Assembly (NCBI GenBank): GCA_964401335.1
Contig: CAYNYK010000009.1
Span: 1,174-65,173, forward strand
Source: an uncultured Planctomycetales bacterium
GTDB taxonomy: Bacteria > Planctomycetota > Phycisphaerae > UBA1845 > PWPN01
DNA: 64,000 nucleotides
Direction: 5' to 3'
The notes under the pieces were generated by a model that did not search any database, had not been told where the DNA came from, and saw nothing but the letters and a program-made list of their open reading frames with translations. The position numbers and the translations under genes are program-made. This document shows positions 34,754 through 60,337 of this stretch, in pieces. Numbering within the stretch: the stretch's first letter is position 1; each line of letters begins with the position of its first letter.

Positions 34754-34756
34754 GGG

Positions 34757-35782: not shown

Positions 35783-35829
35783 TGCTGAGGGTGACTAAAC
35801 GTTACAGAAGGATAAATGGGGCGTTTAAC

Positions 35830-37823: not shown

Positions 37824-37903
37824 GGTACAATGCTACCCGATTCACACAAATTACGATACCTTGTAGACGGATCAAGTGATGATTATTTCGTGGTGGAAAT
37901 AAC

Positions 37904-39001
37904 GTGAAAAATTCTCCGCGACAACGTTTATTGGATTTTATTCGGAGCAAATCGCCGGGAGTGATTTTTTCCCCGCTGGCCGGCGGGAATTGGGCGGCCT
38001 CGGTTTGTGGGCGCGAATGGATTCCGGACAGCTTCGGCCCGGACACGGTGGAGGATATGCTTTCGGCGGCCGCGCGCTGCGGCTTCGATCTGATACTGGG
38101 GACGGGGTGGTGGGACAACGAATTTTTACCCTGGCCGAAACTCCGTGAAGAGATAGACGAAAATACTTATCGATTCCGCCAGCATATCGACACCCCGCAC
38201 GGTCCAGTCGAACAGGTGATGTCCAACGCGAAACGCTTGGGCAACCGGATGGAAACGCCGGCGTTCAGGAAAATTGACGGACGGCTGTTCGACTTACTGG
38301 AGATGATCGCTAGCCGGCGCGACGAGCCGCTGGCGAGCATCCGGCGGGCGGTGGAACTGGTCGGCGAACGCGGGTTGTTGTACCTGGGGACCAGTTGTCC
38401 GCACACTTTGTTCGGCCTGTTGGACGGGATGAGTGTCATTTATGCCTGGGACGAGGATCGCGACCTGTTCCGGTCGGCCTGCGAATGCGCTTTCGCCGCG
38501 ACCATGAACGTGATCGAGGTCGCCTTGCAGGCGGGCATCGAATGTGTTTTCCTGGCGACTTACGGATTGAGTCTTTTCTCGCCGCGCATCCTCGAGGAAT
38601 TCGCCTTGCCCTATCTCAAGAAAATCGCCGAGTATCTGCACGCCCGGGGCAAGCTGCTGTACATTCACGAATGCGGCCGCATGAAAATCGGTATCGAACG
38701 CGGCTGGTGGAACGAAGTGTTGCCCGACATTTTGGAGGGTTTTGAAAGCCCGCCGGTGGGTGACATCGACGATCTGGCCTGGGCCCGGCGGAAACTCGAT
38801 CCGCGAATTATCATTAAGGGTAACGTCAGCATCGCCGATCTGCTGAACGCCGAGCCGGACACGATTCGCGTGCAGTCCCGGCACGTGCGGGCGGCGGTCG
38901 AAGGTTACCCGCACATTCTCGGCAGCGCCTGCTCCATTCTCTATGGTACGCCCGTCGAAAACGTCCGGGCCATGGCGGAAAACGCTACGGCAGACGGTTA
39001 G
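37904..39001 (+). CDS. URO-D / MtaA-like family protein
   Basis: YIHECG, IKGNVS, ILGSACS..YGTPVENVRAM; GTG start. Confidence 0.8.
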   Translation: MKNSPRQRLLDFIRSKSPGVIFSPLAGGNWAASVCGREWIPDSFGPDTVEDMLSAAARCGFDLILGTGWWDNEFLPWPKLREEIDENTYRFRQHIDTPHGPVEQVMSNAKRLGNRMETPAFRKIDGRLFDLLEMIASRRDEPLASIRRAVELVGERGLLYLGTSCPHTLFGLLDGMSVIYAWDEDRDLFRSACECAFAATMNVIEVALQAGIECVFLATYGLSLFSPRILEEFALPYLKKIAEYLHARGKLLYIHECGRMKIGIERGWWNEVLPDILEGFESPPVGDIDDLAWARRKLDPRIIIKGNVSIADLLNAEPDTIRVQSRHVRAAVEGYPHILGSACSILYGTPVENVRAMAENATADG

Positions 39002-39016
39002 TGATTCTCCACTCAG

Positions 39017-40831
39017 TCACTTCGGCAACGGGTAGTTAAGCACGCCGAACTGCCAGAAGAAATCGGCCAGGGTCTTTTCGCTGCGCAGAAGGAAATCCTT
39101 GCGAAAGAGGGCGGCCTCTTTGGCGATGATCCGTTTGCGCTCCGCGTCATCTTTAATATGCAGCTCATGGGTGCCGTACCCCTCCTCGTCGGAGAGTTTA
39201 AGAAGCTCTTGAAAACGCTGGGCGTAGGCCTTGGCCATATAGTCCCGCTTGATGCCCTTTTCATGGCATTCGGCGGCGCTCATCAGCTTGCCGTCAGGGC
39301 CGGGCATGACACAGAACCAGCTTGCGTCGGCCAGGGCCCAGTGCTGATCGGCCCAGAATTCGGTCACGACATGACCATGTTTGCGGTTGGAATACTGCAG
39401 GAAGATCAGCCGGGCCGGGATTCCCGCCACCTGGCAAAGCCGGACATAAAGCCGAGCCTGCTCGTTGCACCAGCCGGTGCCGCTTTTCGCCAGCGATTCC
39501 TCGTCCATCGCCCGGTTCGCGATGACATGACAGGCCCGCGGCGGGAAAGCCGGGTGCAGCACCAGATCGGGCATCGCCTTGGTGAGCAGGGCGACGGCCT
39601 TGTCCGTGTCCGTTTTCAGGCCGGCCGTGTATTTGGCCACGATCTGTTCCAGGTAAGGATACGTCCCCTTCTTATACTCGACGGTGGTCGGCGAATAATC
39701 CTTGTACAGATAATCTGCCGTCTCCGGACGATAGACGATAAAACGATTGGCCTGCCACAGATCGACGCCGTCGCACGACGGGCCGATGGGTTTTTCCATG
39801 TTGGTGAACGGCTCGTCGAGACCGTGGCGACTGAGGTACGGCATGACCCATTCCGGTAAAGTTTCCTTGGCCCAGGGCGGAACCGGCACCCATCCGTAGA
39901 CGTTTCGCTCCGCGTCGAAGATAGTCTCACGGGTTTGCAAATGGTCTTTCGGCTTCAGTAAGCCGAGGTTCTTTTCCTTCACATAGCGATCGAGGGCCAT
40001 GTCCGGATCGTTGGTCATGAAATAGATGCGCCCGATCATCTCGCGGTCTTCGTTGGGTGCGATCATGTCGAAAACCACGCTGATATTCATGCTCCCCTTG
40101 CCGCCGTTTTCCACATGCATGACTTCGGCGGCCTTGGTCCAGCCGATAGCCACCAGGCTCTTGCCCGACTTCGACGCACAGGCCAACCAGGGCTTTTCCG
40201 CGATGGTTGGGAGTATCGAACGCTTGTAGGCCCCCATGCTGAGTGCGGGATTGGGTTGTCCCTCGGCCACCAGGAAAGGCGGCTGGAACTGGGTAAGCAG
40301 CTCTACCAGAGGCGTGGGTTTGCCGTCATGCACGACAAAGGTCCGCTCCAGGTTGGGATCGGCGTAGCTGTCGGCCGCTTCGCCCTGATCGGGATAGAGG
40401 CCGATCCGGGCCTCGACCTGCCAGAGCGGCCATTCCCAATGGTTGGTAAGGCGAAGATGGATCTGAAGGACATCCTCCGCTACCGGTTTGACATGTACCG
40501 CGATGGCCAGATTGCGGTCAGCCGTGGCCGCGTAATGACAACCGTTGCACGCCTGCGACTGCCATTTGGAATTCGTCTTGTGATCGGCGGCGGCCAGCAG
40601 GGTTCCGGTTGGTTCGGAAATGATGGCTTCCGGCACGCGCAGACGCCAGGTGCCTCCGACGCCGGGGACACGGACGATCAGGTCGCGTTGATCCTGAGCC
40701 TTCAATTGAATGGCGTCGTTGCTGACGGGAGTCGTCCGCATGGTGAACTCCTGGGCACGCAGGGACGAGGAGACGAAGATCATCCCGGCAAGAATGACGA
40801 CAACGATTGACAAGAAACGCAGATATGGCAT
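39017..40831 (-). CDS. Secreted protein: N-terminal beta-sandwich plus transglutaminase-like domain
   Basis: Signal peptide; triad WCNEQAR (Cys), HGHVVTE (His), LADASW (Asp). Confidence 0.8.
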   Translation of the reverse strand: MPYLRFLSIVVVILAGMIFVSSSLRAQEFTMRTTPVSNDAIQLKAQDQRDLIVRVPGVGGTWRLRVPEAIISEPTGTLLAAADHKTNSKWQSQACNGCHYAATADRNLAIAVHVKPVAEDVLQIHLRLTNHWEWPLWQVEARIGLYPDQGEAADSYADPNLERTFVVHDGKPTPLVELLTQFQPPFLVAEGQPNPALSMGAYKRSILPTIAEKPWLACASKSGKSLVAIGWTKAAEVMHVENGGKGSMNISVVFDMIAPNEDREMIGRIYFMTNDPDMALDRYVKEKNLGLLKPKDHLQTRETIFDAERNVYGWVPVPPWAKETLPEWVMPYLSRHGLDEPFTNMEKPIGPSCDGVDLWQANRFIVYRPETADYLYKDYSPTTVEYKKGTYPYLEQIVAKYTAGLKTDTDKAVALLTKAMPDLVLHPAFPPRACHVIANRAMDEESLAKSGTGWCNEQARLYVRLCQVAGIPARLIFLQYSNRKHGHVVTEFWADQHWALADASWFCVMPGPDGKLMSAAECHEKGIKRDYMAKAYAQRFQELLKLSDEEGYGTHELHIKDDAERKRIIAKEAALFRKDFLLRSEKTLADFFWQFGVLNYPLPK

Positions 40832-40864
40832 GACGATTCTCTCCACAAGAATAACATTATCCGA

Positions 40865-43060: not shown

Positions 43061-43267
43061 GACTGGTTCCTTTGGGCCAAGCGCGAGACGATGGTCGCGT
43101 TTGACGAAAGCTTCGGCTTCCTTATATAGTCAACCCGCACGGCCGACTCCACCGCGACCCGGCCGATCGAAATATGCAAAGCCGCGGCGACGGCCGCGAT
43201 TATCCCTGTGTTTAATTGCGCATGCAAATCGTGATAGGTTGTGGTTACTCAAAAGGAGGTATCCCTC

Positions 43268-44368
43268 ATGCACCGATTGCATCTCAGTCGGACCGTGACC
43301 TTGGTGGGCGTTTTGTTTTTCAGTTGCCCCTTGATCGCCGCCGATCCTCAACCGCCGGTGAAGTACACCGAGCCCAAGGGAACGGTGGTTCCCCGATACC
43401 GCTACGTCGGCAAGGACGCCGTCGGGAAAATTCCTTTCTACATGGAATATAGCAGTCAGGAGGATAATCGGCATCTATATCGCGGCAACAAGGAGGCCTG
43501 GTTTGAAAATCTGGAGACGATCACCGAATATTCGACCCTGTTTCCCATCCGTCTGTTCCAGGCCGATGATCCCGAAATCTTCGAATGGATCATCGAACTG
43601 ACCCAGGCCGCCTATAAAAAGAAACAACTGATCGTTTTCTTCGGTTATGATTACAAGGGCGTGGATCGGCTCGGCAGGGTACTGGATCGGCTGGAAAAAT
43701 TGCCCGAGGGTCAGGATATCATCCGCAATATCATAGCGAACCATCTGGCGGATGAGCCTTATCTCGGCGGCCAAACGGCCGAGCAGGTGGAGGAGCTGAT
43801 TGCCTATTTCGATGACAAGATCAAGTCGCGTTATCCCCACATTCAATCCTGGATCAATTTCGCGGTCTCGACCGAGCAATTGAAAACCTGGGGCACGGGC
43901 AAGGAGGGCGACGGGCGCCGGCGATTGCCCAAGGGGTTGGATATCGTCGGGATCGACTGGTACGCCTTTCTCGGCAACGGGACGCGGAATAACTGGGGGC
44001 ATAAGGATTTCCGCGTGGCGGAAAAACAAATCCTCGACACGGTTTTTCCCAAATACATGGATGACCAGACCAAACGTATGAAGGAGGCGATCGCGGCCTG
44101 CTATCCGCCCGGTAAGGAGCCGATGATGTGGTTTGTCGGTTGCTCCTCGTATCCGTTTGGCATTGCCCATCCGACACCACCCTCGGTCCAGGACGCTTAT
44201 TTCGAGTATATCAAGAATTCCGAATGGGCCGGCCTGTGCTGGTGGATTTTCGAGGACTTCAAGGAGGGTGGCGAGCATGGGAATACCTTTCTCGGTGGAC
44301 GTAATTACGAGGTCATCCGTTGCCACCAGCGGCACGGCCAGCGGATTCGTGATGAACGTTTGTATTAG
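43268..44368 (+). CDS. Secreted hypothetical protein, possible GH-like TIM barrel
   Basis: AGGAGG RBS, signal peptide; HLADEP, DIVGIDWY and GLCWW motifs resemble clan GH-A-like barrels. Confidence 0.55.
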   Translation: MHRLHLSRTVTLVGVLFFSCPLIAADPQPPVKYTEPKGTVVPRYRYVGKDAVGKIPFYMEYSSQEDNRHLYRGNKEAWFENLETITEYSTLFPIRLFQADDPEIFEWIIELTQAAYKKKQLIVFFGYDYKGVDRLGRVLDRLEKLPEGQDIIRNIIANHLADEPYLGGQTAEQVEELIAYFDDKIKSRYPHIQSWINFAVSTEQLKTWGTGKEGDGRRRLPKGLDIVGIDWYAFLGNGTRNNWGHKDFRVAEKQILDTVFPKYMDDQTKRMKEAIAACYPPGKEPMMWFVGCSSYPFGIAHPTPPSVQDAYFEYIKNSEWAGLCWWIFEDFKEGGEHGNTFLGGRNYEVIRCHQRHGQRIRDERLY

Positions 44369-44411
44369 CGTGTGGGTATCGTATCTTGCATGATGACCGG
44401 TAAGCGAATCG

Positions 44412-47400
44412 ATGACAATGAGCAAAACGATGTTTTCTCGCCACCGACGGATACTGTTGATCATCTTTTCGGTTGTCAGCAGGGCGCAAGCCGCTCCCAC
44501 GGTGTTATATGCCCCTTCCGAGGTGGTCGAAGGCCGACGCTTTCGCCTCGTGCTCGAAGTCCCGGCCGGCGAATCGGAACCAAAGCTCCTGTTTGCCCAA
44601 GAAGCTCTGGAACTTTTTGATCAATCGCGTCCCGCGGCCGGGCAAACGAAGCGCTATTATTATTTTCGGGCGTTAAAACCACGCGAGGAAACGGTTATCG
44701 AGTACGAGGCTGGCGCCGGTCGCCAACTCCTCTGCAAAATGAAAATCTGGTCCGAGCGGGACAACATGACCGTCCTGCGCAAGCAGGGTGATATCCAGTT
44801 GCCGCGGCGCTGGCCGTTGGGTGAGCCGGATTTCGCGGAATACAAAACCGGCATGACCATGCGTTCGGCCGAGGAGGTTGAGCGCATTCGTGCCGAATAC
44901 CGGGCCGGGTTGAAGGCCGGTCAAGAGCAATCGATTTATCCCCCCGCCGAGGAAATCGCCAACCGCTCGGACGATGATTTGTATGATTGGTTGCCACCGG
45001 CGGACATTCCCCGCGGAATCTTCGTGGGCCTGGAATCGGGCTGCCCCGTGCATGGCCGGGAAATCTTCAAACACGGCGGGCATTATCCGTGGAAATTTGA
45101 TCTGTTAAGCAAACCCTGGAAAGCCCAGTGTCCCGTGGGTGGAGAGCTGTATCCTTCCAATGATTTCGCCCAAGGCGACATGACCGGCGGTCCCTATCCC
45201 GACGACGGTTACGGCCAGATTCACGAGGGCAAAATCAACGCCTTCATCGCCGTTTATTGTTCGTACCGTTCGCATGATGCGGCCCAATGCATGACCACGC
45301 TGGCCGACGGTTATCTCAAGACGGGCAATCCCCGTTACGCCTACAAAGCGGGCATTCTCTTGGCCCGGATGGCCCGCGAGTGGGGCTACCTCGCCGGCCA
45401 GTTGCACCACCGGTATATGTTCCACAGCGAAGTGATCGGCGGTTTGAGTTGGTATAAATCTTTGCCATCCGAAAAGGATCGGTTGTACGGCCCGCGCGCA
45501 CCGCAACGGGTTTACGAACTGAACGGCGTGGGCATGACCAACTATCGCCTGAACATCGCTCCAAGTACGCCGGCCTGGGCCCGGGCTTACGATGTGTTGT
45601 TCGAGGCCCTGTCCAACGATCAAACCTTGGCCGACTATTTGAAAAGCAAGGGCCTACCGGTGCGCACGCCCGCCGACGTGACCCGCTATATCGAGGACCA
45701 TTTCTGGCGCGTGTTGGCTCAGGCGATCATGGACCGCTGCGCCGCCTCCAACGCTCCGGAAGAGCAGATGGCCATGCAGTCGGTCGCCCTGTGCCTGAAT
45801 TATCCCCGTTGTCGTGAGCTGGTGGCGTGGAACTATTTTGGCGATATCGGCATGCAGTCGTTTCTGGTCAACGGGTATTACCGGGACGGGTCGGCCACCG
45901 AATCCACCGGCGGCTATAACGGGATTCATGTGGCCAAGCTCTGGCCTATCGAGGAGATGATGGATCGCCTGCGGGCCTTGCGGCCGGATATCTATACAAA
46001 GGAAGCTTTTCCACCGCTGGCGGATAATCCGAAATACAAATCCGTTTTCGATATCCCGGTGGATATCATGAGCGTCGACGGGATGTATCCTTGGATCGGA
46101 GATACCGGCGGCGTACCGGACAATAAAATCTCCGGGCCGGTCTATTACCCCAATATGCATGATGCCCGGGAAACCTACGAATATGCCTGGAGAACCTTCA
46201 AAGATCCCAAGTATGCACAGGTTCTCTGGCAGGGTAAAGGATACGAACCAGGTCCGGACAGCGGTATTACCCGGGAGGAAATCGAGCAAGCTATCACCCG
46301 GATTGGTCCGGAGTTCCGGCGGGAAAGCGCTTTATTCGACGGCTATCGGCTGGCCCTGTTACGCAGCGAAACCCCACCGCCATCGATGGCCGATCTTGCC
46401 AAGGAATGGGAACCACGGGCCGTCTGGATGTTCTACGGCGACGTGCCCGACCATCGCCGCGACGAGTCGATGAGCGTGGGCCTGTTCGCCAATCACATGA
46501 GCCATATCCGCCACCTCGGCTATCCGGCCGGCGCCAAGCGTGATCTTTGGGAAGGCAACTGGGCGACCACCTTCAACGCCCGGATCATCAAGGATTATTA
46601 CCATCTTTTGTACAAAGGGTCGGCCATCGCTTTTGCCCAGTTGGATGGGGTGAGCTTGTTCGCTGCCGACGGCGACGCCTACACGCCGCCCGAGCCTCCG
46701 GATGGTTTCTATAAGCGCTACCCCGATATGCTGGTCCGCCGCACTCTTTCGTTGGTCGATCTCGGCCCGAGGGATTTTTATTTCGTGGACATCTTCCGGC
46801 TCAAGGGCGGCGAGGAGCAGTATTGGAGCTTCCACGCCAATCCGTCGCGATTAACCATTACCGGCGCGGGCGAATTCGTGAAGCAGGCAGGCGGGACGGC
46901 CGCCGGAGCGGACGTACCCTATGGATCCATCGAGGAACTGCCGCGTCCGACCAATCCGCCGGGTACCAATCCGCCCGGGCCGTATCGCTCTATTGGAACG
47001 CTGGCACATCTTTATGATGTTGAACGGGCCCGGCCTGGCGGACCATGGCAGGCGGACTGGGCCTTGCAGGATACCGATGATCTTCATTTGCGGATGAATA
47101 TCCTGACGCCGCGTGAAGTGGAAATCATCACCGCGACCGGCCATCACCCCATGGCGCCCAAGGAGGCCGCCCCCTATTCCGTGCGGTTCCTGCTCCAGCA
47201 TGCCAAGGGCCCCGAACCACTGGCCAAGCAATTCGTGAGCGTGGTCCATACATATCAAGGTTGCTCGCCGATCACATCCGTACAATGCCTGGCTGACGCC
47301 CCGGAACAGGATTTCGTGGCCTGTAAAGTCGAGACCGACCAGCGCACGGATTATATTCTCAGCGACGAGGCTCCCGCCGACCCCTCCGATCCATCAATTT

Positions 47401-48293: not shown

Positions 48294-48646
48294 CCTTGGA
48301 GTACTCGATACGACCTGGCCGTGGCCGTGGAACGTGGCCCTGAACGCTATTCCGAGGGTGGGCGAAAAAAGGAAAATTAGGGTAAAAACAACAGATGACG
48401 CGATCCCGCCGGCAAGCATATAGGTTGCCATCAGCTGTCAAATCGGTCTTTGGTAAGAGCTGTTGATGACCATAAGGGTATGAGGCGAATAAAACTTTTA
48501 TTTGCAATGGTTTGCACGCTCATTATCGGGGCTTGTCCGGCCTTGTCGAGATGGATTTAGATAGGCTGAGTTTAAGCTTAAAAAGAAATTTAGTACTATT
48601 ATTGATTAAATAATAAATATACGCCATTTGGTTCCTATCTATATAG

Positions 48647-48676
48647 TTGACAAGGCTACTTAAACGCCGATATTAT
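48647..48676 (+). promoter_or_regulatory. Sigma70 promoter of the DUF1559-type gene
   Basis: TTGACA-N18-TATTAT downstream of a very AT-rich tract (48560-48645). Confidence 0.6.
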
Positions 48677-48823
48677 CTTGGGGAAAGGGGTAGGAGGTGT
48701 GAAAAGCCGCCGTGCGTTCAGTTTTTTCAGCGGAACGCAGGGAGGATGAGGCGAAAGTTTTTTTTTCAAACAATGAGTATTAGTTGCGGCCGCTGGCGGG
48801 GTTCAATAAAGAGGTATTATGCA

Positions 48824-49804
48824 ATGAAACAAACAGGCGTCAGACTGAATCGCGGTAAAAACACGCGGGGCTTTACTTTGATCGAAGTGCTGGTCGTGGT
48901 CGCGATCATCGCTCTGCTGATTGCTATTCTTTTACCCTCTTTAAAACGAGCCCGGGAAAACGCGCGGAGTTCCGTTTGTCGTACGAACCTGCACGATCTT
49001 GGTACTTCTTTGTACATGTATGCAAACACATATAAAGATTGGTTTCCCCCTACGCCCTATGTCGGCTCGAAATGGCGGGGAAGCACGGTGGGGGCGGCCG
49101 TCGTTAATGACGACAATTTATTTATCCTTTGGTATAGTAAATTCGCCACTAATGTGAAGATTTTTAATTGCCCATCGACCAATTATATTCTGCGCGAGCC
49201 GTCAAGACAGCATACCACCCGCGTGGATAGTGATCAGGGCATTTACCCCGGAGGATACTATTTGGAAGTTCGCACCGTCATTGACGGCGTGCCTCAGCTT
49301 CGTAATGATTTCGCCCGGGCAGCTCAGCTTAAAGGAAGAGAGGGGTTTGGCTCCAGTTATGAGTATGGTAATTGGATATCCAGCTATAAACCCGAAAGTT
49401 CCCGAGTTGATTGGTTTCATAGCCGGATTAACCGGATAACTCCTCAGAGTACCGCCCTTGATGAATATGATGGTGACTTCCAAGCACCCTGGACGATACC
49501 TTTTGAAACAGATACCGATAGCGCTAGTATCTATCGTGGCAAACAATTTGGCCGGGTCGTCAAGAGGCCTACTTCAAAGTTTCCACAAGCGTCCATTTCC
49601 ATGTTGATGCATGATGCGGACGAGAGCGGCGAAATCATCGGCGGTCCACCTGATCCGCCAGGCGCTAAAAACAATACACCGGAAGACTGGGATAACCACG
49701 GTAAGGCAGGGTTGAATATTCTTTTTGTTGACGGCCATGTAGACTTTGCCAACGCAAAAACTGCTAAGCGTATCTGGAGACAACAGGTGATTCCTCCCAA
49801 TTAG
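48824..49804 (+). CDS. Prepilin-type N-terminal cleavage/methylation and H-X9-DG domain protein (DUF1559-type)
   Basis: RG|[30 protein letters not shown]...C..NL and C-terminal [15 protein letters not shown]; GAGGT RBS. Confidence 0.92.
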
Positions 49805-49839
49805 TGCTACCCGTACGGCAGTACGGCAATATCGTCTGA

Positions 49840-50037
49840 CGTTTAGGGATACGCCAATATTGGGAACCTTGGCCTCATGCTTGCCCGAAATGCGGAAAGG
49901 AAAAGCTATATCTTGTAGTCCGACGATACATGTATTGCCGAAAACCCGTCCCCGCAAAAGATCCTCAGGCCGAGCAATATGGCAAACCCGAGCGGTGCCC
50001 TTGGTGTAAGAAGCCATATCAGGGACGTCAGCAGTAG
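49840..50037 (+). pseudogene. Start-less zinc-ribbon ORF (CPKC...CPWC)
   Basis: Manual translation RLGIRQYWEPWPHACPKCGKEKLYLVVRRYMYCRKPVPAKDPQAEQYGKPERCPWCKKPYQGRQQ*, bounded upstream by TGA 49837-39. Confidence 0.4.
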
Positions 50038-50142
50038 TCACGAAATCCCACGCATAAGTGATAAGCTATTATTACATTGGTAATAATTCCTTTTTTGTCC
50101 TTGGGCTCAATCCGCACAAAAACCAGGGAGAACCTTACGCAA

Positions 50143-50176
50143 GCCTGTTTACCCTGCCTGTTTGAACCTTTATAAT
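50143..50176 (+). promoter_or_regulatory. Putative promoter with direct-repeat operator upstream of paralogue 1
   Basis: TTTACC (50148-53)-N17-TATAAT (50171-76); GCCTGTTT repeated at 50143 and 50156. Confidence 0.4.
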
Positions 50177-50270
50177 GCCGATGCTTCAGCAGACCCGCTG
50201 TTGGATGAATTGGTGACGGCATAACCCATGAAGAACTCGGTTCCGGTGAGTCCCTTATTACGGGAGTATA

Positions 50271-52931
50271 ATGATGTATCGCCCCATACGATTCGTGCTA
50301 ATGGTCATTGGTTTTGTGCATTGTGCCTATGTTGCTTTTGCGGTTGAACCTCCGGAATGGGCCGTGGTTGAATGTAAAGGCCTCAAGGCTTTATCCGAGG
50401 TGGTTGACTACTGGATTGATCGGCAAGCGCCGGACGGGAGTTTTGGGTTTGGGCTGGACGACGATTGCGAGTTTTATACCGGCTGGCCCATTCTGGTCTA
50501 TGCGGCCGACGATCAGCGCGTACTCGAAGCCCTGCGCAAAAATCTGGACTGGGTTTGGTATAACGATGAGGTACAGGACGGTTATCAGGCCCACGTCGGC
50601 GACGCCGAGCACAGTTCCGAGGTGACCTCGTACACGCAGCCGCTGCTTTCCCACGCTGATTACGGCAACCCGGTCCTGATCGAGCGGCTCATGGAAACAA
50701 GCAAAAATATGGAGTGTTGGACGGCGACAAATAAGGCCGGGCATCGTCATTTCCGCGGGCACTGGCTCGGTTCGCAGGGCATGCGCGATTATTCCTACTT
50801 TGGGGCTGACGCCACCATTGTCGCCCGGGCGACGATTCCCATGATGCATCTGCTTCTGTACAACCGCGATCCCTACCTGGCCAGAATATGCACCGAGTGG
50901 GGCCGGGCCTGGGTCGATCATGCGAAGGAAACCAGGTGGAACAAACCCTACGGCCTGTTGCCCGCCGAGGTCGTATTCCACACCGACGAGGCCGGCGGGT
51001 TCACCCGGCAATGGTGGAGTTCGGCCTCTTCGGGTTACGACATTTACAAATCACCCTGGTACATGAACCGCCTGCATCAGATGTTGCTGGTCAACTACAT
51101 GATTACCGGCGATACCGATTTTCTTGTCCCCATGCAGGAGACACTCAAGTTTTTTGCCCAAGCCACGCCGGAGAATACGCCGGCCGGTGTCATGTGGCCG
51201 GCATGGTATACGGATCGGGTTTCGCCGCCGACCTATGGCCGCACGCCGGAGCAGATGCCTCTGATCTGGCAGGATTACCGAGGACGCATCGCCGGTTATT
51301 TTCCCATGTTCTACCGTTACGCGACGGGCGATACCCAGTTTGATTCTTTATGGGGGACAGTGCCATCGATGCCGACACCCCAAGAGGCCAGGGCTTCGGC
51401 CCGGAGCAACGGCCAGTCCGCCATCGACGGGGCGAAGGCGGCTCTCGAAGCGGCCAAGACCATCAACGTAAAAAACTCCGTCGACAACTACCGAGCCAAC
51501 CTCAACGTGGGCGGTTTCCCCGCTCTTTATCACGGCGGCAACAACTGGGTTGACCTTCCCCGGCCGGCCTGCCGCTGGCTCAAGGGGAATTACGAGCTGG
51601 CCGTCGTTCTGCTTGAACACTCCGGGAAACATTTCAAAGCCCTCTGCTGTAATGTCGGGGCGAACCAACGTGAATTCGGCGTTCAACTTTTCGAGCTTAA
51701 ACCGGGCACTTACCGTATAACGCTCGGCATCGACACCTCCGCCAACAACCGGCCGGATAAAATCGTTCGCGAGGAGACGATCAAGGTCGAGCGGGGTACG
51801 ATCCTGCCGCTCGATCTGGAGCGCGGGCACGAATATATCATTGAACTGGAACAGTTGGCGACCGGTCCGGAATGGGCTTCGCGAGCCGATGTGGCCGTCT
51901 GCGACCGTGATCTCTACGCGGTTCCCGCCGCCCCAGCTCCCGGTACCGCCGCCGTCCTGAAAGTACGGGTGCATAACATCGGTACCGAAGATGCCCGGAA
52001 TGTAGGCGTCCGGGCCGAGGAGATGCCCTCCGGCCGGTTCATCGGCGAGCGGACCATTGACCTGCTGGCGGCGCCGATCAATCTTGTGCCCAGTCAAGTC
52101 ATGGTCGAAATGCCTTGGACTATCGGGGCCGACGCCGAAGGCGTGCGCGTAGTGGTGGATCAAGGCGGTTTTGTTGAGGAGATTTACGAAGGAAATAATT
52201 CTGCGGAAATCCGCTTGGCGGACATGCCCGACGGCCCGCCGCGTAAGCGAAAAATCTTTATCCCCGGTTGGTACGAGATGCAGAAATTGGGCCCTGTGAC
52301 GACCTATACGGCAGCCTACGTGAAAAACATCAAAATGGACGGGAAGTTGGATGATTCCGAATGGGGCAAGGTCGAGAAGCACAGTGCGCGAATCGACATG
52401 GATGGCCGCAAGACGGAGAAGGAAACCATCCTGCGAATCGCTTACGGCGACGAGGCCATCTATATCGCCGTTGAATGTCCCGAACCGGACATGGATTTGT
52501 TGCATGAAAGCGCTACGCAGCGCGATGCTTACGAGGTGTTCGGTGACGACGGCGTCGAAATCTTCATCGACACCAATCTGGATCGGACTACGTATCTACA
52601 GTTCGCTTTTACTGTTGGCAATATCCAGGCCGAGGGGCAATACTACAATTTCAGTATCTTCAACGAACCGTGGGAATCGGTCGTGCATAAGGGCAAGGAT
52701 TTCTGGTCCGCCGAGGTACGCATTCCCTACAGTACGCTCGGGGCCGTGGCTCGGCCGGGGCAAACCTGGGGGATCAATATCTATCGTAATGTGAAAACCT
52801 TCCCCGTGCCTGAAACCGAGGCGGAGCGGCAAAAGGGTTGGAAGACCAGCGAGCAACACCTGTTTTCGCCGACTCATGATTACCACGAACCCAGCCGCTT
52901 CGCCGAGGTGACTTTCGGCCCCAAACCGTGA
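50271..52931 (+). CDS. Secreted uncharacterised protein, paralogue 1 (alpha/alpha toroid-like + CARDB-like + CBM9-like)
   Basis: Signal peptide; YWIDRQAPDGSFG; VRVHNIGTEDA (CARDB-like); MDGKLDDSEW...DDGVEIFID...WSAEVRIPY...TWGINIYR (CBM9-like). Confidence 0.8.
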   Translation: MMYRPIRFVLMVIGFVHCAYVAFAVEPPEWAVVECKGLKALSEVVDYWIDRQAPDGSFGFGLDDDCEFYTGWPILVYAADDQRVLEALRKNLDWVWYNDEVQDGYQAHVGDAEHSSEVTSYTQPLLSHADYGNPVLIERLMETSKNMECWTATNKAGHRHFRGHWLGSQGMRDYSYFGADATIVARATIPMMHLLLYNRDPYLARICTEWGRAWVDHAKETRWNKPYGLLPAEVVFHTDEAGGFTRQWWSSASSGYDIYKSPWYMNRLHQMLLVNYMITGDTDFLVPMQETLKFFAQATPENTPAGVMWPAWYTDRVSPPTYGRTPEQMPLIWQDYRGRIAGYFPMFYRYATGDTQFDSLWGTVPSMPTPQEARASARSNGQSAIDGAKAALEAAKTINVKNSVDNYRANLNVGGFPALYHGGNNWVDLPRPACRWLKGNYELAVVLLEHSGKHFKALCCNVGANQREFGVQLFELKPGTYRITLGIDTSANNRPDKIVREETIKVERGTILPLDLERGHEYIIELEQLATGPEWASRADVAVCDRDLYAVPAAPAPGTAAVLKVRVHNIGTEDARNVGVRAEEMPSGRFIGERTIDLLAAPINLVPSQVMVEMPWTIGADAEGVRVVVDQGGFVEEIYEGNNSAEIRLADMPDGPPRKRKIFIPGWYEMQKLGPVTTYTAAYVKNIKMDGKLDDSEWGKVEKHSARIDMDGRKTEKETILRIAYGDEAIYIAVECPEPDMDLLHESATQRDAYEVFGDDGVEIFIDTNLDRTTYLQFAFTVGNIQAEGQYYNFSIFNEPWESVVHKGKDFWSAEVRIPYSTLGAVARPGQTWGINIYRNVKTFPVPETEAERQKGWKTSEQHLFSPTHDYHEPSRFAEVTFGPKP

Positions 52932-53372
52932 GCGCGTGAGCGCTGCCAAGGGTGGCTCACGTCTTCATACGTGGGGGAGCGATGATCGATAGCGGATGAC
53001 TCATGCATCGATTCGTCATTTTCCCGCCTCGACCATGTGCATCTGGAGACAGGCGGCCCGCTCGATCGAAGACTGGTCACGAACAAGCACCCACAAACGG
53101 AGGCCCGGCTTGGCACCGGGTCTCCGTTTGAAGGTGCCACCCAATCGTATCGGAGAGCTACCCGATTACATCAGAAGACTGGTGGCTACGTTGCATCCCC
53201 AATGACTAACTTTCTTTTTTAGAAAGACCAGCTATTGACGGGCACCGGCCGATTCGAGCATGATATCAACCCGCGGAGCGGGTGGTCCTCGATGAATCCC
53301 CCGTCGGATCGCGAGTTGCTGCTTGGCATAGTCCTGTTGCGAGAATCTCTCCCGAGCATAAGGAGTACCGTC

Positions 53373-56015
53373 GTGCATGTCACACAGAGAATCGCGTCGC
53401 TGAGTTTGCTTATAATGCCGATCATCGCGTACGCCGCCGACCCGCCGGAGTGGGCGGTGATGGAATGTCGCGGCCTGCAGGCCCTGTGCGAGGCGGTGCA
53501 TTATTGGGTCGACCGGCAGGACGCCGACGGCAGCTTTGGTTTCGGCGGAATGGACCGAGACTGTGAACTCTACAAGAATTGGGCGATTTTTCTATACGCG
53601 GCCGACGATCAGCGCATACGCGAAGCCTTGCACAAGGCCGTCGACTGTGTCTGGTACGACGAGCGGGTGCAGGATGGTTTTCCCGCTGCGCCGGCGGATG
53701 CGATGCATGCCGGCCAGGTGATCTCTTATACGCAACCGATCCTGGCCATCGCCGATTACGGCCATCCGATTCTTATTGAGCGTTGGATGATTACCTCGCA
53801 AAACCTGCCGCGCTGGACGGCCATCAACCGCGCCGGGCATCGGCATTTTCGCGGCCATTGGCTGGGCTCTCAGGAAATACGCGAATATTCCTACTTCGGC
53901 GCTGATGCCACCATTAATGCTCGGACGGTTCTGCCCGCGCTGCATCTGCTTTGGTACAACCGCGATCCCGATCTCGCGCGTTACTGTATCGAATGGGGTC
54001 AGGCCTGGTTGGATCATGCCCGGGAGACCCATGGCGGCAAACCTTATGGATTGCTGCCCAGCGAGGTGGTTTTTGAAACGGACGAAGCGGGTGGCTTCAC
54101 GAAAACCTGGTACGATTCAGCCGCTTCCGGATCCTCGATGCATAAGAACCCAACCTGGATGAGCCGGCTCATGCAATTGTTGATGATGAATCACCAGCTC
54201 ACCGGCAATCCCGACTTCTTGATACCGCTCCGGGAAACGCTCAAATTCTACGCCACCGCCCGGCCGGACAACCTCCCCGATAATGTGCAAATGTGGCCGG
54301 AGTGGTACACGGACCGCGTGCCCCCGCGCGACGGCAAAAAACCGGAGGAAATGCCTTTTGTATGGGCGGACTACAAAGCGCGCATAGGCGGCAAGTTTCT
54401 GCCGATCTATTGGGGCTTCACGAACGATCATTCCTTCGATGCCTGGTACGGGATGTCCCCGCCGAAACCCACCCGTCAAACAGCGATGGAGGCCGGCCAA
54501 TGGGGACTGCAAGAGGCCGCCCGAGCGATGGAGACCGCCAAGACCATTAACGTAAAAGGCAGCCTCGAATTTTACCGGGCCAGAGTCCACGAGGGAGTGT
54601 ACCCCCTGCTCTATCACGGCGGCGACAATGAAGTGGACTGGCCTCGACCGGCGTGCCGATGGCTTAAGGGGTATGGCGAATTGGGCGTCGTGCTGCTGGA
54701 GCATTCTCAGAAAAATTTCAAAGCGCTTTGCTGCAACGTGGGTAAGGAAAAACGCGCGTTCGGCGTGCAGTTGTTCGAGTTGGAACCGGGCATGTATCGG
54801 ATGACGCTGGGCATCGATAAAAACGGTGACGATCAGGCGGATACTCTTTTACGCGATGAAAATGTCATGATCGAGCGGGGCACGCGGGTGTTCTTTGATC
54901 TGGAACGAGGCCATGAGTACTTCGTGGAATTTCAACAGATGGCCAAAGGCCCGGCCTGGTGGTCGCGAGCGGATGTGGCCGTGTGCGAGCGCGACCTGTT
55001 TGTCGTCCCGGCCGGCCCAGCCGCGGGAACCCAGGCGACGCTGCGGGTACGCGTGCATAACCTCGGCACGGAAGACGCTCGACAAGTGACGGTTTGGGCG
55101 GAGGAATTGCCGGCCGGCACGTTTATCGGCATGAAAACGATCGAGATGTTGGCCCGCCCGCGGAACATGACGCCCAGCAACGTCATCGTCGAGCTTCCCT
55201 GGTCGATCAGCGCGGAGGCAAAGGGTGTTCGCGTCATCGTGGACAAGATGAACGTGATCGAGGAGCTTTACGAGGGCAACAATACCGCCGAAATCATGCT
55301 GGCGGACATGCCCGAGGGGCCGCGCATCAAGCGGAAGCTCTATGTGCCGGCCTGGTATGAACGGCAGAAAATGGGACCGGTGGCCCAATACACCGCGCCC
55401 TATGTCCAGGGGATCGTCATTGACGGAAAAGTAAACGAGCCGGCGTGGCAGAAAGCCGAGCGGCGCGGTCCGCTGGGCGATCTGGAAGGCAAGCCTAATG
55501 ATAAACAGACTTTCGTGCGTATGGCGTATGACGACGCCGCTCTTTACGTAGCCTTCGAGTGTCCCGAGCCGTACATGAATCTGATCCAATCGCTGACCAC
55601 CGTGCATGACGGCCACATGTTCAACGACGAATGCGCGGAAATATTCGTGGACACCAACCTGGACAAACAAACGTATCTGCAATTCGCTTTCAACACGCTC
55701 AATGTTCAGGCCGAGGGGCAATATTTCAATTTCAGCATTTTCAACGAGCCGTGGGAATCGGCGGTGCATCTGGATAAGGATTTCTGGTCGGCCGAGGCCA
55801 GAATACCGTTTACCACCTTACAGGCCGTGGCCCGACCCGGACAGACATGGGGGATCAACCTGTATCGGAACGTGCGGACCTTCCCGGCGCCGGAATCCGA
55901 GGAGGAGCGACGCAAGGGCTGGAAGGGCACCGAGCGTCATGTCTTGTCCCCGACTTACGACGATTTTCATCAGCCGGATCGCTTCGCGGAGGTGACCTTT
56001 GCTCGTAAGCCGTAA
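53373..56015 (+). CDS. Paralogue 2 of the same family
   Basis: AAGGAG then GTG 53373; signal peptide then DPPEWAVMEC; colinear with paralogues 1 and 3. Confidence 0.8.
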   Translation: MHVTQRIASLSLLIMPIIAYAADPPEWAVMECRGLQALCEAVHYWVDRQDADGSFGFGGMDRDCELYKNWAIFLYAADDQRIREALHKAVDCVWYDERVQDGFPAAPADAMHAGQVISYTQPILAIADYGHPILIERWMITSQNLPRWTAINRAGHRHFRGHWLGSQEIREYSYFGADATINARTVLPALHLLWYNRDPDLARYCIEWGQAWLDHARETHGGKPYGLLPSEVVFETDEAGGFTKTWYDSAASGSSMHKNPTWMSRLMQLLMMNHQLTGNPDFLIPLRETLKFYATARPDNLPDNVQMWPEWYTDRVPPRDGKKPEEMPFVWADYKARIGGKFLPIYWGFTNDHSFDAWYGMSPPKPTRQTAMEAGQWGLQEAARAMETAKTINVKGSLEFYRARVHEGVYPLLYHGGDNEVDWPRPACRWLKGYGELGVVLLEHSQKNFKALCCNVGKEKRAFGVQLFELEPGMYRMTLGIDKNGDDQADTLLRDENVMIERGTRVFFDLERGHEYFVEFQQMAKGPAWWSRADVAVCERDLFVVPAGPAAGTQATLRVRVHNLGTEDARQVTVWAEELPAGTFIGMKTIEMLARPRNMTPSNVIVELPWSISAEAKGVRVIVDKMNVIEELYEGNNTAEIMLADMPEGPRIKRKLYVPAWYERQKMGPVAQYTAPYVQGIVIDGKVNEPAWQKAERRGPLGDLEGKPNDKQTFVRMAYDDAALYVAFECPEPYMNLIQSLTTVHDGHMFNDECAEIFVDTNLDKQTYLQFAFNTLNVQAEGQYFNFSIFNEPWESAVHLDKDFWSAEARIPFTTLQAVARPGQTWGINLYRNVRTFPAPESEEERRKGWKGTERHVLSPTYDDFHQPDRFAEVTFARKP

Positions 56016-56181
56016 TGGATTTATTATTTTTAGACCGCAGGGCATTTGACGTCCGACTCCCTTTCGGGTCACGATGTTCATTTGCGGTGTAAGCCATCCT
56101 GTGTACAGCCGTTGAAACGCCGTACGTCGGATCGGTTCCATGAGTATCTATTTTGTCGGCTAGACGCAGAGGAGCAAGACA

Positions 56182-58824
56182 ATGCACAAGGCATGGATGA
56201 TTTGGCTGCTCGGGTGGGTGATGACTTCGTCGGTGGTATCGGCCGTGGAACCGCCGGAGTGGGCGGTGCTCGAATGCCGGGGCCTCCAGGATCTGGCCCA
56301 AGTCGCTCATTATTGGGTGGATCGACAAAGTCCGGAAGGGAGCTTCGGCTTCGGAGGACTGGACCGCGATTGTGAATTTTTCAACTCATGGATTGTTTTC
56401 ATTTATACCGCTGATGATCAGCGCATTCTCGAAGCCCTGCGCAAGGGTTTGGATTATGTCTGGTACCACGATCATGTTCAGGATGGATACGGGGCTTCGC
56501 CGACCGACGCTCAGCATGGCGGCGAGGTGATGTCCTATACCCAACCGTTGTTGGCCGTGGCCGACTACGGCAATCCCATCCTTATCGAGCGCTGGATGAT
56601 CACCGCCCAGAACATGAATCGCTGGACGGCCATCAACCGTGCCGGGCATCGCCATTTTCGCGGGCATTGGCTCGGCTCACAGGAAACGCGGGACTATTCC
56701 TACTTTGGTGCCGACGCAACCATTATCGGCCGAGTTACTCTGCCCATGATGCATCTGCTCTGGTACAACCGCGATCCCGATCTGGCCCGCCTTTGTACGG
56801 AGTGGGGTCAAGCCTGGGTGGATCATGCCAAAGAGACCCGATGGGGCAAGCCTTATGGCCTGTTGCCCGGCGAGGTCGTTTTTGAGAGTGATGAGGCCGG
56901 AGGATTCACGAAGAACTGGTATGACTCCGCTTCGTCCGGTTTTCCATTGTACAAAAGCCCCTGGTTCATGACCCGTCTGCTGCAAATGTTGATGATGAAC
57001 TACCAGATCACCGGCAACCCGGATTTTCTACTGCCCATTCGCGAGACGCTTAGATTTTATGCCACCGCCCGGCCGGATAACCTGCCCCAGGGCGTCACCA
57101 TGTGGCCCGCCTGGTACAAGGATCGTATCCCTCCGCGGGATGGCAAGAAGCCGGAAGACATGCCTTATGTCTGGGAACACTACAAAAACCAGTTGGGCGA
57201 TCGTGCTCTTAAAATGTATCGGGGGTTTACCGGCGATTGTTCGTTTGATGCCTGGTATGGTCATAAAACGCAGCCGCCCTCGCGCCAGATGGCCTTGGAG
57301 ACCGGTAAATGGGCGAGCCGTGAAGCCACAAAACTCCTACAGATTGCACGGACCATCAATGTACAAGGTAATCTTGAGCATTATCGGGCGAAAATAAGCG
57401 AAGGAGATTTTCCTGCCCTTTATCACGGGGGGAACAACTGGGTGGACTGGCCACGACCGGCCTGCCGGTGGATCAACGGTCGTTATGAACTCGGCGTGGT
57501 TCTGCTGAATCACTCTCCCACTCGATTCAAGGCCTTGTGCTGCAACATAGGCAAGGATAAACGAAACTTCGGTTTACAGTTGTTTGAATTGGAGCCGGGA
57601 ATCTATCGTCTATCCTTGGGCATCGACACCAACGGCGATGACCGAGCGGATAAACAAGTGCGCGAGGAAGACATCTCGATGGAACGGGGTACCGAATTGG
57701 CCTTGGAATTGGAACAAGGCCATGAATACCTTGTCGAATTGCAGCAGATGGCGAAAGGGCCGGCATGGCAATCACGGGCGGACGTAGCCGTGTGTGGACA
57801 GGATCTGTTTGCGATACCGGCGGCTCCCGTTGCCGGAAGCCAGGCGACGCTGAAAGTTCGAGTGCATAATATAGGCTCGGAGGATGCCCGGCAGGTTACG
57901 GTATGGGCGGAGGAACTGCCGAGTGGTCGATTTATCGGCATGGATACGATTAACATACTGGCCCGGCCGCGGAACATGATCCCGAGCAGCGTGATGGTCG
58001 AGATGCCCTGGTCGATCAGCGCGGAAGCCACGGGGGTACGCGTTATCGCGGACAAGATGAACGTGGTCGAGGAGCTTTACGAGGGGAACAACGTTGCGGA
58101 AATAAAACTGGCGGAACTGCCGGAGGGGCCGCGAATCAAGCGCAAGATCTACTTGCCAGCCTGGTACGAACGCCAGAAAGAGGGTCCGGTGGCCGACTAT
58201 ACGGCACCTTATGTCCAGGGTATCAAGATTGACGGAAAAATCGACGAGCCTGCCTGGCAGAAGGCCGAGCGTCGCGGACCACTGACCGATATGGAGGGTC
58301 AACCTACCGAAAAGCAGACTTACGTGCGAATGGCCTATGGCGAGGATGCCCTCTACGTTGCTTTTGAGTGCCCTGAGCCCAATATGGATCTGATCCATGA
58401 TCTGGCTACCCTGCATGATGATTACGCCATTTTCGGCGATGAAAGCGCGGAAATCTTCATCGACACCAATCTCGACAAACGGACGTATCTGCAGTTCGCG
58501 TTTAACACCGCGAATGTTCAGGCCGAGGGGCAATATTATAACTTCACCATTTATAACGAGCCTTGGGAATCGGCGGTATTCAAGGGCAAGGATTACTGGT
58601 CGGCCGAGGCGAAAATACCATTTGCTTCCTTAAAAGCGGTTGCCAAGGCCGGGCAGATCTGGGGCATCAACCTGTATCGCACCGTTCGGACCTTCAAAAT
58701 TCCGGAATCCGAGGCGGAGCGACGTAAAGGCTGGAAGGGCACCGAACGCCATGTCTTCTCGGTGACCGACGATTTTCATGCGCCGGATCGTTTTGGCGAG
58801 GTGACCTTTGGACCGAAGAACTGA
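56182..58824 (+). CDS. Paralogue 3 of the same family
   Basis: GAGGAG RBS; signal peptide then VEPPEWAVLEC; colinear with paralogues 1 and 2. Confidence 0.8.
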   Translation: MHKAWMIWLLGWVMTSSVVSAVEPPEWAVLECRGLQDLAQVAHYWVDRQSPEGSFGFGGLDRDCEFFNSWIVFIYTADDQRILEALRKGLDYVWYHDHVQDGYGASPTDAQHGGEVMSYTQPLLAVADYGNPILIERWMITAQNMNRWTAINRAGHRHFRGHWLGSQETRDYSYFGADATIIGRVTLPMMHLLWYNRDPDLARLCTEWGQAWVDHAKETRWGKPYGLLPGEVVFESDEAGGFTKNWYDSASSGFPLYKSPWFMTRLLQMLMMNYQITGNPDFLLPIRETLRFYATARPDNLPQGVTMWPAWYKDRIPPRDGKKPEDMPYVWEHYKNQLGDRALKMYRGFTGDCSFDAWYGHKTQPPSRQMALETGKWASREATKLLQIARTINVQGNLEHYRAKISEGDFPALYHGGNNWVDWPRPACRWINGRYELGVVLLNHSPTRFKALCCNIGKDKRNFGLQLFELEPGIYRLSLGIDTNGDDRADKQVREEDISMERGTELALELEQGHEYLVELQQMAKGPAWQSRADVAVCGQDLFAIPAAPVAGSQATLKVRVHNIGSEDARQVTVWAEELPSGRFIGMDTINILARPRNMIPSSVMVEMPWSISAEATGVRVIADKMNVVEELYEGNNVAEIKLAELPEGPRIKRKIYLPAWYERQKEGPVADYTAPYVQGIKIDGKIDEPAWQKAERRGPLTDMEGQPTEKQTYVRMAYGEDALYVAFECPEPNMDLIHDLATLHDDYAIFGDESAEIFIDTNLDKRTYLQFAFNTANVQAEGQYYNFTIYNEPWESAVFKGKDYWSAEAKIPFASLKAVAKAGQIWGINLYRTVRTFKIPESEAERRKGWKGTERHVFSVTDDFHAPDRFGEVTFGPKN

Positions 58825-60207: not shown

Positions 60208-60337
60208 GGACAATCTAACCAGCCCGCAGCGCGAGCAAGGGTCCACCAGCCCGAAGCAGTTTACCAAGCTTGCCTCGCTCGCCACGGCGGAGCCCTGCGG
60301 AGCCGGGCCTGGGCGGGCCGCAGCGGGCGAGCGAGGG
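60208..60337. repeat. REP-like family 1 cluster between aroE and argG
   Basis: ACCAGCCCGCAGCGCGAGCAAGGGTCCACCAGCCCGA plus the inverted pair CCTCGCTCGCC (60273)/GGCGAGCGAGG (60326). Confidence 0.75.

Follow-up and report, generated by a model that had tools for sequence, protein, structure and literature searches.

A prepilin-type gene in a candidate non-Sus polysaccharide-degradation locus of an uncultured Planctomycetales bacterium

A polysaccharide utilization locus (PUL) of the Bacteroidota type is recognized by its SusC/SusD genes. In Planctomycetota, clusters of genes for carbohydrate-active enzymes (CAZymes) are loose and contain many unclassified genes, and none has been functionally characterized (PMC11131199). 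In the verrucomicrobium Verruconatronum alginivorum, an alginate-induced lyase cluster holds a pulG-like pseudopilin that has 67 paralogues; another pseudopilin was over-expressed on alginate, the induction was measured by proteomics, and the authors link the pseudopilin to secretion (PMC13274419). The DUF1080 protein BT2157 of B. thetaiotaomicron was shown experimentally to be a 3-keto-disaccharide hydrolase whose partners are an IolE-like TIM protein and dehydrogenases, while ThuAB is a rhizobial 3-keto-glycoside dehydrogenase (PMC8121099). Here we describe a locus that can be compared to each of these systems. It occupies positions 39017-58824 of the window, that is, of the whole 64,000-nt stretch of contig CAYNYK010000009.1 (GCA_964401335.1, an uncultured Planctomycetales bacterium) that was analysed and to which all coordinates refer. 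Among genes for secreted proteins it contains a gene for a prepilin-type, DUF1559-related protein, called here the pilin. DUF1559-type proteins are among the largest gene families of Planctomycetes and their relatives (68 paralogues in the planctomycete P. limnophila; PMC10632474) and have no known function; they were uncharacterized in the literature that we searched.

We interpret the locus, with moderate confidence, as a non-Sus CAZyme gene cluster (CGC) whose envelope and extracellular proteins attack a uronic-acid polysaccharide, most likely one like pectin/rhamnogalacturonan or a related acidic polymer of bacteria or algae, with the pilin probably engaged in the same process. The signs that the locus is directed at carbohydrates are a lyase-fold enzyme, three CBM9 (carbohydrate-binding module family 9) paralogues, a 3-keto-glycoside module and, upstream, a gene of polysaccharide lyase (PL) family 22 and a gene similar to glycoside hydrolase (GH) family 28. 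A CGC is defined as at least one CAZyme gene with another CAZyme, a regulator or a transporter within two genes (PMC11131199). Here three adjacent CBM9_1 genes have the lyase-fold gene two genes upstream, and the locus falls under this definition by Pfam and fold assignments. The first-pass annotation of this DNA had called the locus PUL-like; a real CAZyme cluster is present, while the SusC/SusD pair of a Bacteroidota-type PUL is missing. New in this locus are a large lyase-fold family outside Pfam, three copies of a very rare toroid-CBM9 family, and a pilin subfamily whose neighbours are suggestive.

The lyase-fold protein and the other secreted proteins

The sequence of the 1293-aa protein alone had no match in Pfam (even at E<=10), NCBIfam or the PDB, and eight diverse members of its family had no Pfam match at E<=0.5. 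The signature of Hepar_II_III_C, Hepar_II_III_N and DUF4962 was absent at the same respective thresholds from the protein and from these eight relatives. The earlier description of the protein as heparinase II/III-like holds at the level of fold, by the AlphaFold (AF2) model and Foldseek, and fails by sequence, which falls outside the Pfam heparinase models. More than 179 homologues with 31-36% identity, nearly all unnamed, came from Planctomycetota, Armatimonadota, Latescibacterota, Kiritimatiellae and others. At least 274 loci were confirmed by scanning the species genomes of GTDB, with hundreds of family members spread over Armatimonadota, Planctomycetota, Latescibacterota and Lentisphaerota.

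A profile of 51 family members matched the PL40 ulvan lyase Uly1040 (9vtk) with E 2.4e-8, in an alignment limited to the C-terminal beta domain (chain residues 549-849). The AF2 model of residues 94-1293 (pLDDT 86.6, pTM 0.89) consists of an (alpha/alpha) toroid, an antiparallel beta-sandwich and extra beta domains. The best 30 PDB matches of this model in Foldseek were all polysaccharide lyases, nearly all of the (alpha/alpha) toroid plus beta-sandwich class, and represented the families PL17, PL40, PL12, PL15, PL21 and PL33. For the first five of these families E ranged from 2.5e-19 to 2e-10, with probability 1.0 and TM (target) of 0.41-0.67. The best family was PL17, with E 2.5e-19 and TM (target) of 0.60-0.67.

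The residues N447, Y502, D564 and H681, invariant in the family, are separated by 55, 62 and 117 residues, compared to 60, 53 and 127 in the catalytic set reported for Uly1040 (N245, Y305, D358 and H485). From a comparison by spacing only, we infer that the four invariants may correspond to the Uly1040 catalytic residues. The 1293-aa protein likely belongs to a new polysaccharide-lyase family, with lyase activity predicted from the modelled fold.

Ahead of the toroid, the cluster Cys211/His214/Cys240 (GCPVHG...CPVGG; window 45042-45131, residues 211-240) is invariant in the family. It resembles a small metal-binding knuckle and, so far as we could judge, does not occur in the matched lyase structures. 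We also observed that lyase-family genes are often present in several copies per genome (L014, L028, L044, L045, L061 and L082; Armatimonadota and others), where some of them adjoin distant lyase-like paralogues, Hepar_II_III_C/DUF4962 proteins or CBM9-bearing giants.

The right arm ends with three paralogues (par1, par2 and par3), as the first reading of the sequence had it. They are 59-71% identical to one another, and each carries CARDB and CBM9_1, the latter with 34-38 bits compared to the Pfam cutoff of 23.4. Their family is very rare, with 16 close homologues and a few distant LamG-containing relatives of 1250-1290 aa among 5.8 billion proteins. In the AF2 model of par3 (pLDDT 83.6), about twelve helices in residues 25-415, which we read as an (alpha/alpha) toroid, are followed by a beta-sandwich, CARDB and the C-terminal CBM9. 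The CBM9 assignment agrees with both the sequence model and the beta-sandwich fold; profiles matched 1i82 and 7nwn, and Foldseek gave 7nwn with E 6e-10 and TM (target) of 0.75. For the toroid domain nothing was found in Pfam (E<=10), in NCBIfam or in the PDB with phmmer and hmmsearch. The whole-chain Foldseek search was dominated by CBM9, CARDB and the multi-domain complement C3 and gave no specific toroid match. Since Asp, Glu, His and Arg residues of the helical domain stay invariant even in distant relatives (DRQ..DGSFGFG, AGHRHFRG), the domain looks like an enzyme rather than a scaffold. Kinship between the paralogue family and the lyase family was ruled out by profile-profile comparison (probability 0.5%).

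The protein p375, called earlier a GH-like TIM barrel, had no sequence match in Pfam (E<=10), NCBIfam or the PDB. Its family is very rare (12 matches in 1.84 billion representatives). In distant relatives the same domain is N-terminal to PKD, He_PIG, dockerin or type IX secretion system sorting domains, which is the usual build of secreted CAZymes.

For the left arm, Pfam confirmed the transglutaminase core and the ThuA-DUF1080-TIM fusion proposed in the first pass. The 609-aa protein has Transglut_core, the core of transglutaminase-like cysteine proteases, in its C-terminal third (41 bits compared to the cutoff of 23), and the residues of the Cys-His-Asp triad are present as Cys460 in GWCNE, His492 in HGHVV and Asp507 in LADAS; its N-terminal part of about 390 aa has no assigned domain. 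In the 731-aa fusion, ThuA (76 bits), 3keto-disac_hyd (DUF1080, 126 bits) and AP_endonuc_2 (the xylose-isomerase-like TIM domain, 60 bits) all score above their cutoffs. Because these domains match the roles described in PMC8121099, the fusion joins three modules of the 3-keto-glycoside route. No dehydrogenase for the 3-keto oxidation (of the GFO_IDH_MocA/ThuB or LacABC type) was found in the locus or in the rest of the window.

Our best guess for the substrate, made from context, is a uronic-acid polymer, either pectin/rhamnogalacturonan-like or ulvan/alginate-like, in preference to a glycosaminoglycan. It follows from the lyase fold, from the PL22, GH28-like/CARDB and GH95-like genes of the window, and from the GH78 and Pec_lyase genes beside a solitary paralogue. 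The GH28-like gene codes for a 992-aa protein of GH28/pectate-lyase fold with CARDB, in a pectin-type context (27400-37056) upstream of the locus. The solitary member of the paralogue family is flanked by a GH78 rhamnosidase on one side and a Pec_lyase-domain protein on the other, and another member adjoins GH43 and esterases. Of the acidic or glycosaminoglycan-like polymer suggested initially, the acidic, uronate part is thus retained. A glycosaminoglycan was judged less likely, given that the window has no sulfatase and that the context consists of PL22, GH28-like, GH78 and Pec_lyase genes.

The prepilin-type gene and its neighbourhoods

The pilin has a canonical class III prepilin signal, RG|FTLIE, in which the G|F-x-x-x-E cleavage and methylation motif is followed by a hydrophobic helix. 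The signal is recognized by N_methyl of Pfam (33 bits) and by TIGR02532 of NCBIfam (28.5 bits), and the N-terminus had profile matches to the N-termini of PilA and GspG structures. The model SBP_bac_10/DUF1559 (PF07596) scored 36-37 bits compared to the cutoff of 23.3, while aligning only profile positions 2-40 of 268. At the C-terminus the motif WDNHG...DGH has the form H-X10-DG, with the ten-residue spacing kept across the subfamily, and the match to TIGR04294 (H-X9-DG-CTERM) reached 13.6 bits compared to the cutoff of 19. The initial label of a prepilin/H-X9-DG (DUF1559) gene is therefore right on the prepilin signal and wrong on the spacing, with a score below the NCBIfam cutoff; with respect to DUF1559 the protein is an atypical relative. 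The subfamily has members of 265-310 aa, mostly from Phycisphaerae, and is marked by Cys52/Cys116, DDNLF, GFGTSYEY (GFGSSYEY in the window copy) and NN.PE.WDNHG.

Two contigs (L011 and L012) of the metagenome-assembled genome (MAG) GCA_964642815.1, also an uncultured Planctomycetales bacterium, jointly reproduce the gene order of the locus. The DNA is colinear at 82-87% except for positions 49185-49862, the C-terminal two thirds of the pilin gene. The pilin is the least conserved gene of the locus, with 52% identity to its positional orthologue of the same subfamily. The identity is 78% in the first 60 residues and declines to about 40% toward the C-terminus, with a 30-residue indel. Its GC content at third codon positions (GC3) is 0.49 compared to 0.65-0.79 for every neighbour gene, while GC3 of the relative's pilin and of the Phycisphaerae homologues is native. 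Together with both flanking spacers (48294-50270) the gene forms an AT-richer island, far more diverged from the relative than the flanks. The same-subfamily occupant in the relative, the foreign GC3 and the low identity lead us to the view that the pilin slot is conserved and that the allele of this lineage seems either to have been replaced horizontally or to evolve very rapidly. Judging from the sequences, the divergence fits a surface-exposed protein and also a dispensable cassette. With 52% identity compared to 86-96% for the other genes, foreign GC3 and an apparent promoter-like site of its own, the pilin gene is hardly one that the locus is "built around", as had been proposed. The expectation of conserved adjacency in related genomes was borne out for gene order in one close relative, which has no par3, and was not borne out for the lyase family, which has no conserved partners.

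We examined the contexts of four pilin-subfamily homologues of 38-41% identity that were picked solely for their long contigs. In three of the four, the gene lies directly downstream of a regulator with GntR and periplasmic-binding domains. All four, from Phycisphaerae, have secreted GH-like proteins within three genes: a cellulase/GH39-like gene 9 bp downstream, a GH140 apiosidase with dockerin, GH106 and GHL10. At L093:2953-9794, in the Phycisphaerae MAG GCA_035384605.1, such a GntR/periplasmic-binding regulator is followed by a pilin of the same subfamily and then by a 1339-aa distant member of the toroid family (positions 22-664 of the paralogue-family profile A1, E 8e-74). As the toroid family is so rare, this recurrence of the pilin-toroid adjacency across classes is the strongest sign of a real link.

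For DUF1559-type genes in general the picture was different. A metagenome scan with the pilin subfamily alignment (A3) returned almost only generic prepilin N-termini (60-90 bits compared to more than 300 for true members), and these matches were used only as a sample of generic DUF1559-like genes (93 genes with 149 neighbours). The commonest neighbour families were sulfatase, GFO_IDH_MocA, xylose-isomerase TIM and aminotransferase, three each. The proposed check of DUF1559 neighbourhoods for CAZyme enrichment thus gave none. A general DUF1559-CAZyme association was not seen, while a subfamily-specific one is suggested by the small sample of four contexts.

Layout of the locus and the surrounding genes

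The locus spans about 20 kb with nine long open reading frames (ORFs) in two divergent arms of mostly signal-peptide proteins, as originally described (Table 1). The minus arm codes for proteins of 609 and 731 aa, the plus arm for proteins of 366, 1293, 326, 886, 880 and 880 aa after correction of starts. By eye, we found Sec-type signal peptides in seven locus proteins (the transglutaminase-like protein, the ThuA fusion, p375, the 1293-aa protein and par1-3) and in the PL22 protein outside, eight in total. Except for the pilin, whose signal is of the prepilin type, the N-termini combine a short basic segment with a hydrophobic core and a cleavage region rich in Ala, so every locus protein carries an export signal of some kind. 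Two mechanical TTG starts, at 48647 and 53235, overextend the genes. The real starts, based on public gene calls, positions of ribosome-binding sites (RBS) and homologues, are ATG 48824 for the pilin and GTG 53373 for par2. The long antisense ORFs at 43475-44500, 51348-52505 and 54849-55769 are shadows typical at 58% GC.

Table 1. Features of the locus and of the surrounding window, with protein identity to MAG GCA_964642815.1
Feature	Position	Strand	Basis	Identity
GH95-like gene	10803-13184			
Sugar transporter of the major facilitator superfamily	19685-21166			
URO-D-like gene	21133-22425			
OprB carbohydrate porin	32945-34315		Pfam	
Secreted PL22 oligogalacturonate lyase	35791-37056		Pfam	
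Multihaem cytochrome c (paired CXXCH)	37050-37823	-	Pfam	
URO-D-like protein	37904-39001		Pfam	
Transglutaminase-core protein, secreted, 609 aa	39017-40846	-	Pfam, motifs, signal peptide read directly	86%
ThuA + DUF1080 + xylose-isomerase-like TIM fusion, secreted, 731 aa	40865-43060	-	Pfam	89%
Divergent intergenic region with promoter-like site 43101-43130 (+)	43061-43267	.	Consensus scan	
p375, secreted 366-aa protein, very rare family	43268-44368	+	Homologue search, architectures	90%
Polysaccharide-lyase-fold protein, secreted, 1293 aa	44412-48293	+	AF2 model, Foldseek, profile match	89-90%
AT-rich intergenic region (GC 0.45) with best sigma70-like site	48294-48823	.	Consensus scan, composition	
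Prepilin-type DUF1559-related protein, 326 aa	48824-49804	+	Pfam, NCBIfam, subfamily alignment	52%
par1, 886 aa: signal peptide, helical toroid-like domain, beta-sandwich, CARDB, CBM9	50271-52931	+	Pfam, family alignment	90%
par2, 880 aa from GTG 53373, architecture as par1	53373-56015	+	Pfam, gene call, RBS	90%
par3, 880 aa, architecture as par1	56182-58824	+	AF2 model, Foldseek	no orthologue
argG				95%
leuA				96%

The right boundary is sharp, with argG, aroE and leuA coming next, and housekeeping genes directly flank the cluster. In agreement with the first-pass annotation, Pfam found no SusC/SusD, TonB receptor or ABC transporter in the locus; the families Plug, TonB_dep_Rec and SusD were absent from every ORF of the locus and of the rest of the window. 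The Rfam search over the whole window gave zero matches. A 61-bp element between argG and aroE (window 60219-60327) is 90% identical to the inter-paralogue spacer of the relative (L011:7239-7299). The assemblies of several runs show alternative joints at this element, which suggests a small mobile or repeated intergenic element. The host organism is present in sludge and wastewater metagenomes.

The genes at 32945-39001 (OprB, PL22, cytochrome c and URO-D-like) may belong functionally to the locus. The cytochrome c gene lies between the PL22 and URO-D-like genes and overlaps the PL22 stop by 7 bases on the opposite strand; that its product serves as a redox partner for periplasmic sugar oxidation is speculative. 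Genes similar to uroporphyrinogen decarboxylase/methyltransferase (URO-D-like) recur beside these carbohydrate genes: two are in the window, one is beside a solitary paralogue (L010:6264-7202), and the lyase family has two of them in its set of 115 nearest neighbours.

Promoters were scanned with the sigma70 consensus, from which planctomycete promoters may differ. The best site of the locus, TTGACA-18-TATTAT at 48647-48676, is located 150 bp upstream of the pilin. The site in the divergent intergenic region, upstream of p375, is tentative (10 of 12 consensus positions). A further promoter-like site precedes par1, and a conserved TTGACG...CATGAT is found upstream of both par2 and par3.

Readings of the locus and comparison with known systems

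In the process that we propose, the 1293-aa enzyme would cleave the polymer by beta-elimination with an Asn/Tyr/His set as in PL12, PL15, PL17 and PL40. The toroid-CARDB-CBM9 paralogues would bind the glycan via CBM9 and process different linkages or side chains, and p375 and the transglutaminase-like protein would be accessory secreted enzymes. Released glycosides may be treated by the ThuA-DUF1080-TIM fusion in the periplasm by the 3-keto route, with the upstream PL22 enzyme and OprB porin handling oligomers. The pilin, of a subfamily travelling with secreted glycan-active genes, probably takes part in this process at the envelope or cell surface, by binding, tethering or export; its role as the glycan-capture component is speculative.

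Several observations weigh against this interpretation. The locus itself has no regulator, no transporter and no 3-keto dehydrogenase partner. Outside the window and its relative, paralogue-family members (five close and two distant ones) have no pilin neighbour. The 115 nearest neighbours of the lyase family span 112 Pfam families, with no conserved operon partner. DUF1559/N_methyl is nominally the commonest of them, with 4 of 115, which is not clearly above the background of 1-2%; in terms of distance, a pilin-like gene is within 10 kb in only 8 of 79 genome loci of the family and adjacent in 4. Among the top 25 families of the 149 neighbours of generic DUF1559-like genes there is no GH or PL. 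Because the relative is so close, the order of genes kept in it says little about selection for that order. Co-regulation of the genes is conjectural, and the promoter-like sites suggest at least four separate transcription units in the locus. The RNA-Seq-labelled runs X5-X7 were rejected as expression data, since their depth was flat across genes and spacers, like that of the DNA run X1, and a search for transcriptomic runs yielded none.

The pilin could also be a bystander, the rest being a CAZyme-rich stretch without a functional unit; we think this unlikely, though still deserving attention. With DUF1559-type genes at 1-2% of planctomycete genes, finding one among nine secreted-protein genes would be expected fairly often. 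A single pilin-like gene in 64 kb, as in this window, corresponds to the background rate, and the 68 paralogues of P. limnophila (PMC10632474) point the same way. The pilin has its own promoter-like site, its foreign GC3 and its divergence from the positional orthologue are consistent with a replaceable cassette, the neighbourhoods of generic pilins are heterogeneous, and pilins make up only the above-mentioned 4 of 115 neighbours of the lyase family. A bystander, however, would not readily account for the slot of the relative holding the same pilin subfamily, nor for the recurrence of this subfamily beside secreted GH-like genes and sugar-type regulators in Phycisphaerae; the L093 pilin, adjoining a very rare toroid-family member, is hard to explain by chance. 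Quite improbable, in our view, is an export or anchoring accessory, that is, a pseudopilin-like subunit that helps a type II secretion system (T2SS) or type IV pilus machine to deliver or tether the large adjacent enzymes and does not bind glycan. The window has no assembly ATPase, platform protein, secretin or prepilin peptidase, which may be encoded elsewhere in the genome, and dozens of paralogues per genome poorly suit a core machine part. Still, the N-terminus matches GspG and type IV pilins, the neighbours are all large exported proteins, and T2SS export was proposed by the authors of PMC13274419 for alginate lyases encoded beside a pulG-like pseudopilin.

A very small chance is left to a cluster that remodels the cell's own envelope or exopolysaccharide (e.g., in holdfast or biofilm matrix turnover) rather than serving external feeding. 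In its favour, uptake systems and cytoplasmic catabolic genes are missing from both arms, one of the proteins is transglutaminase-like, the cluster directly adjoins housekeeping genes, and the host lives in sludge flocs rich in acidic extracellular polymeric substances. On the other hand, PL22, GH28-like, carbohydrate porin and sugar transporter genes are nearby, and the window has no glycosyltransferase or polysaccharide export genes.

If the link between the pilin and glycan degradation holds, it would point to a non-Sus coupling of glycan recognition to degradation in bacteria of the Planctomycetes-Verrucomicrobia-Chlamydiae (PVC) group, which are important degraders in sludge, in soils and on algae. 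A bolder version, which we regard as rather unlikely, takes the prepilin-type subfamily for the PVC counterpart of SusD and surface glycan-binding proteins. The pilins would then be substrate-specific modules shown by pilus or secretion machinery and encoded beside dedicated secreted enzymes, including two undescribed families (the 1293-aa lyase-fold and the toroid-CARDB-CBM9 proteins). If true, a function would be found for the huge expansions of DUF1559-type genes.

Compared to the SusC/SusD PULs of Bacteroidota, the locus likewise has clustered secreted glycan-degrading enzymes and a candidate surface binder that evolves faster than the enzymes. It differs in having no SusC/SusD, TonB-dependent receptor or dedicated regulator, in its several apparent promoters, and in the prepilin type of the candidate binder. 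With the CAZyme clusters of Planctomycetota (PMC11131199) it shares loose clustering and many unclassified genes; here, however, most catalytic candidates are outside Pfam, and standard annotation probably sees only the CBM9 modules. As in the 3-keto-glycoside pathway (ThuAB; BT2156-BT2160 of B. thetaiotaomicron, PMC8121099), DUF1080, a xylose-isomerase/IolE-like TIM domain and ThuA are present, all predicted to be periplasmic, whereas here the three modules are fused in one secreted chain.

The 1293-aa protein shares the toroid and the antiparallel beta-sandwich with PL17, PL40, PL15, PL12 and PL21 (Alg17c 4ok4, Uly1040 9vtk, heparinase III 4mmh), and has a conserved Asn, Tyr and His-x-Q/H whose spacing resembles that of the known catalytic sets. 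Its structural matches are only 9-14% identical, and it has about 400 extra residues, in the N-terminal beta domain, the Cys/His cluster and the C-terminal beta domains. The pilin resembles the DUF1559/H-X9-DG proteins of PVC bacteria in the class III signal peptide, the DUF1559 N-terminal segment and the C-terminal H...DG; unlike them, it belongs to a separate, mostly Phycisphaerae subfamily with H-X10-DG and a central domain unmatched by the Pfam model. The V. alginivorum cluster (PMC13274419), likewise from a PVC bacterium, has a member of a massively expanded pseudopilin-like family among (alpha/alpha)-toroid lyases, there PL15 and PL39, the pilins being likened by context and not by homology. 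That cluster comes from another phylum and has other lyase families, and its induction was measured by proteomics.

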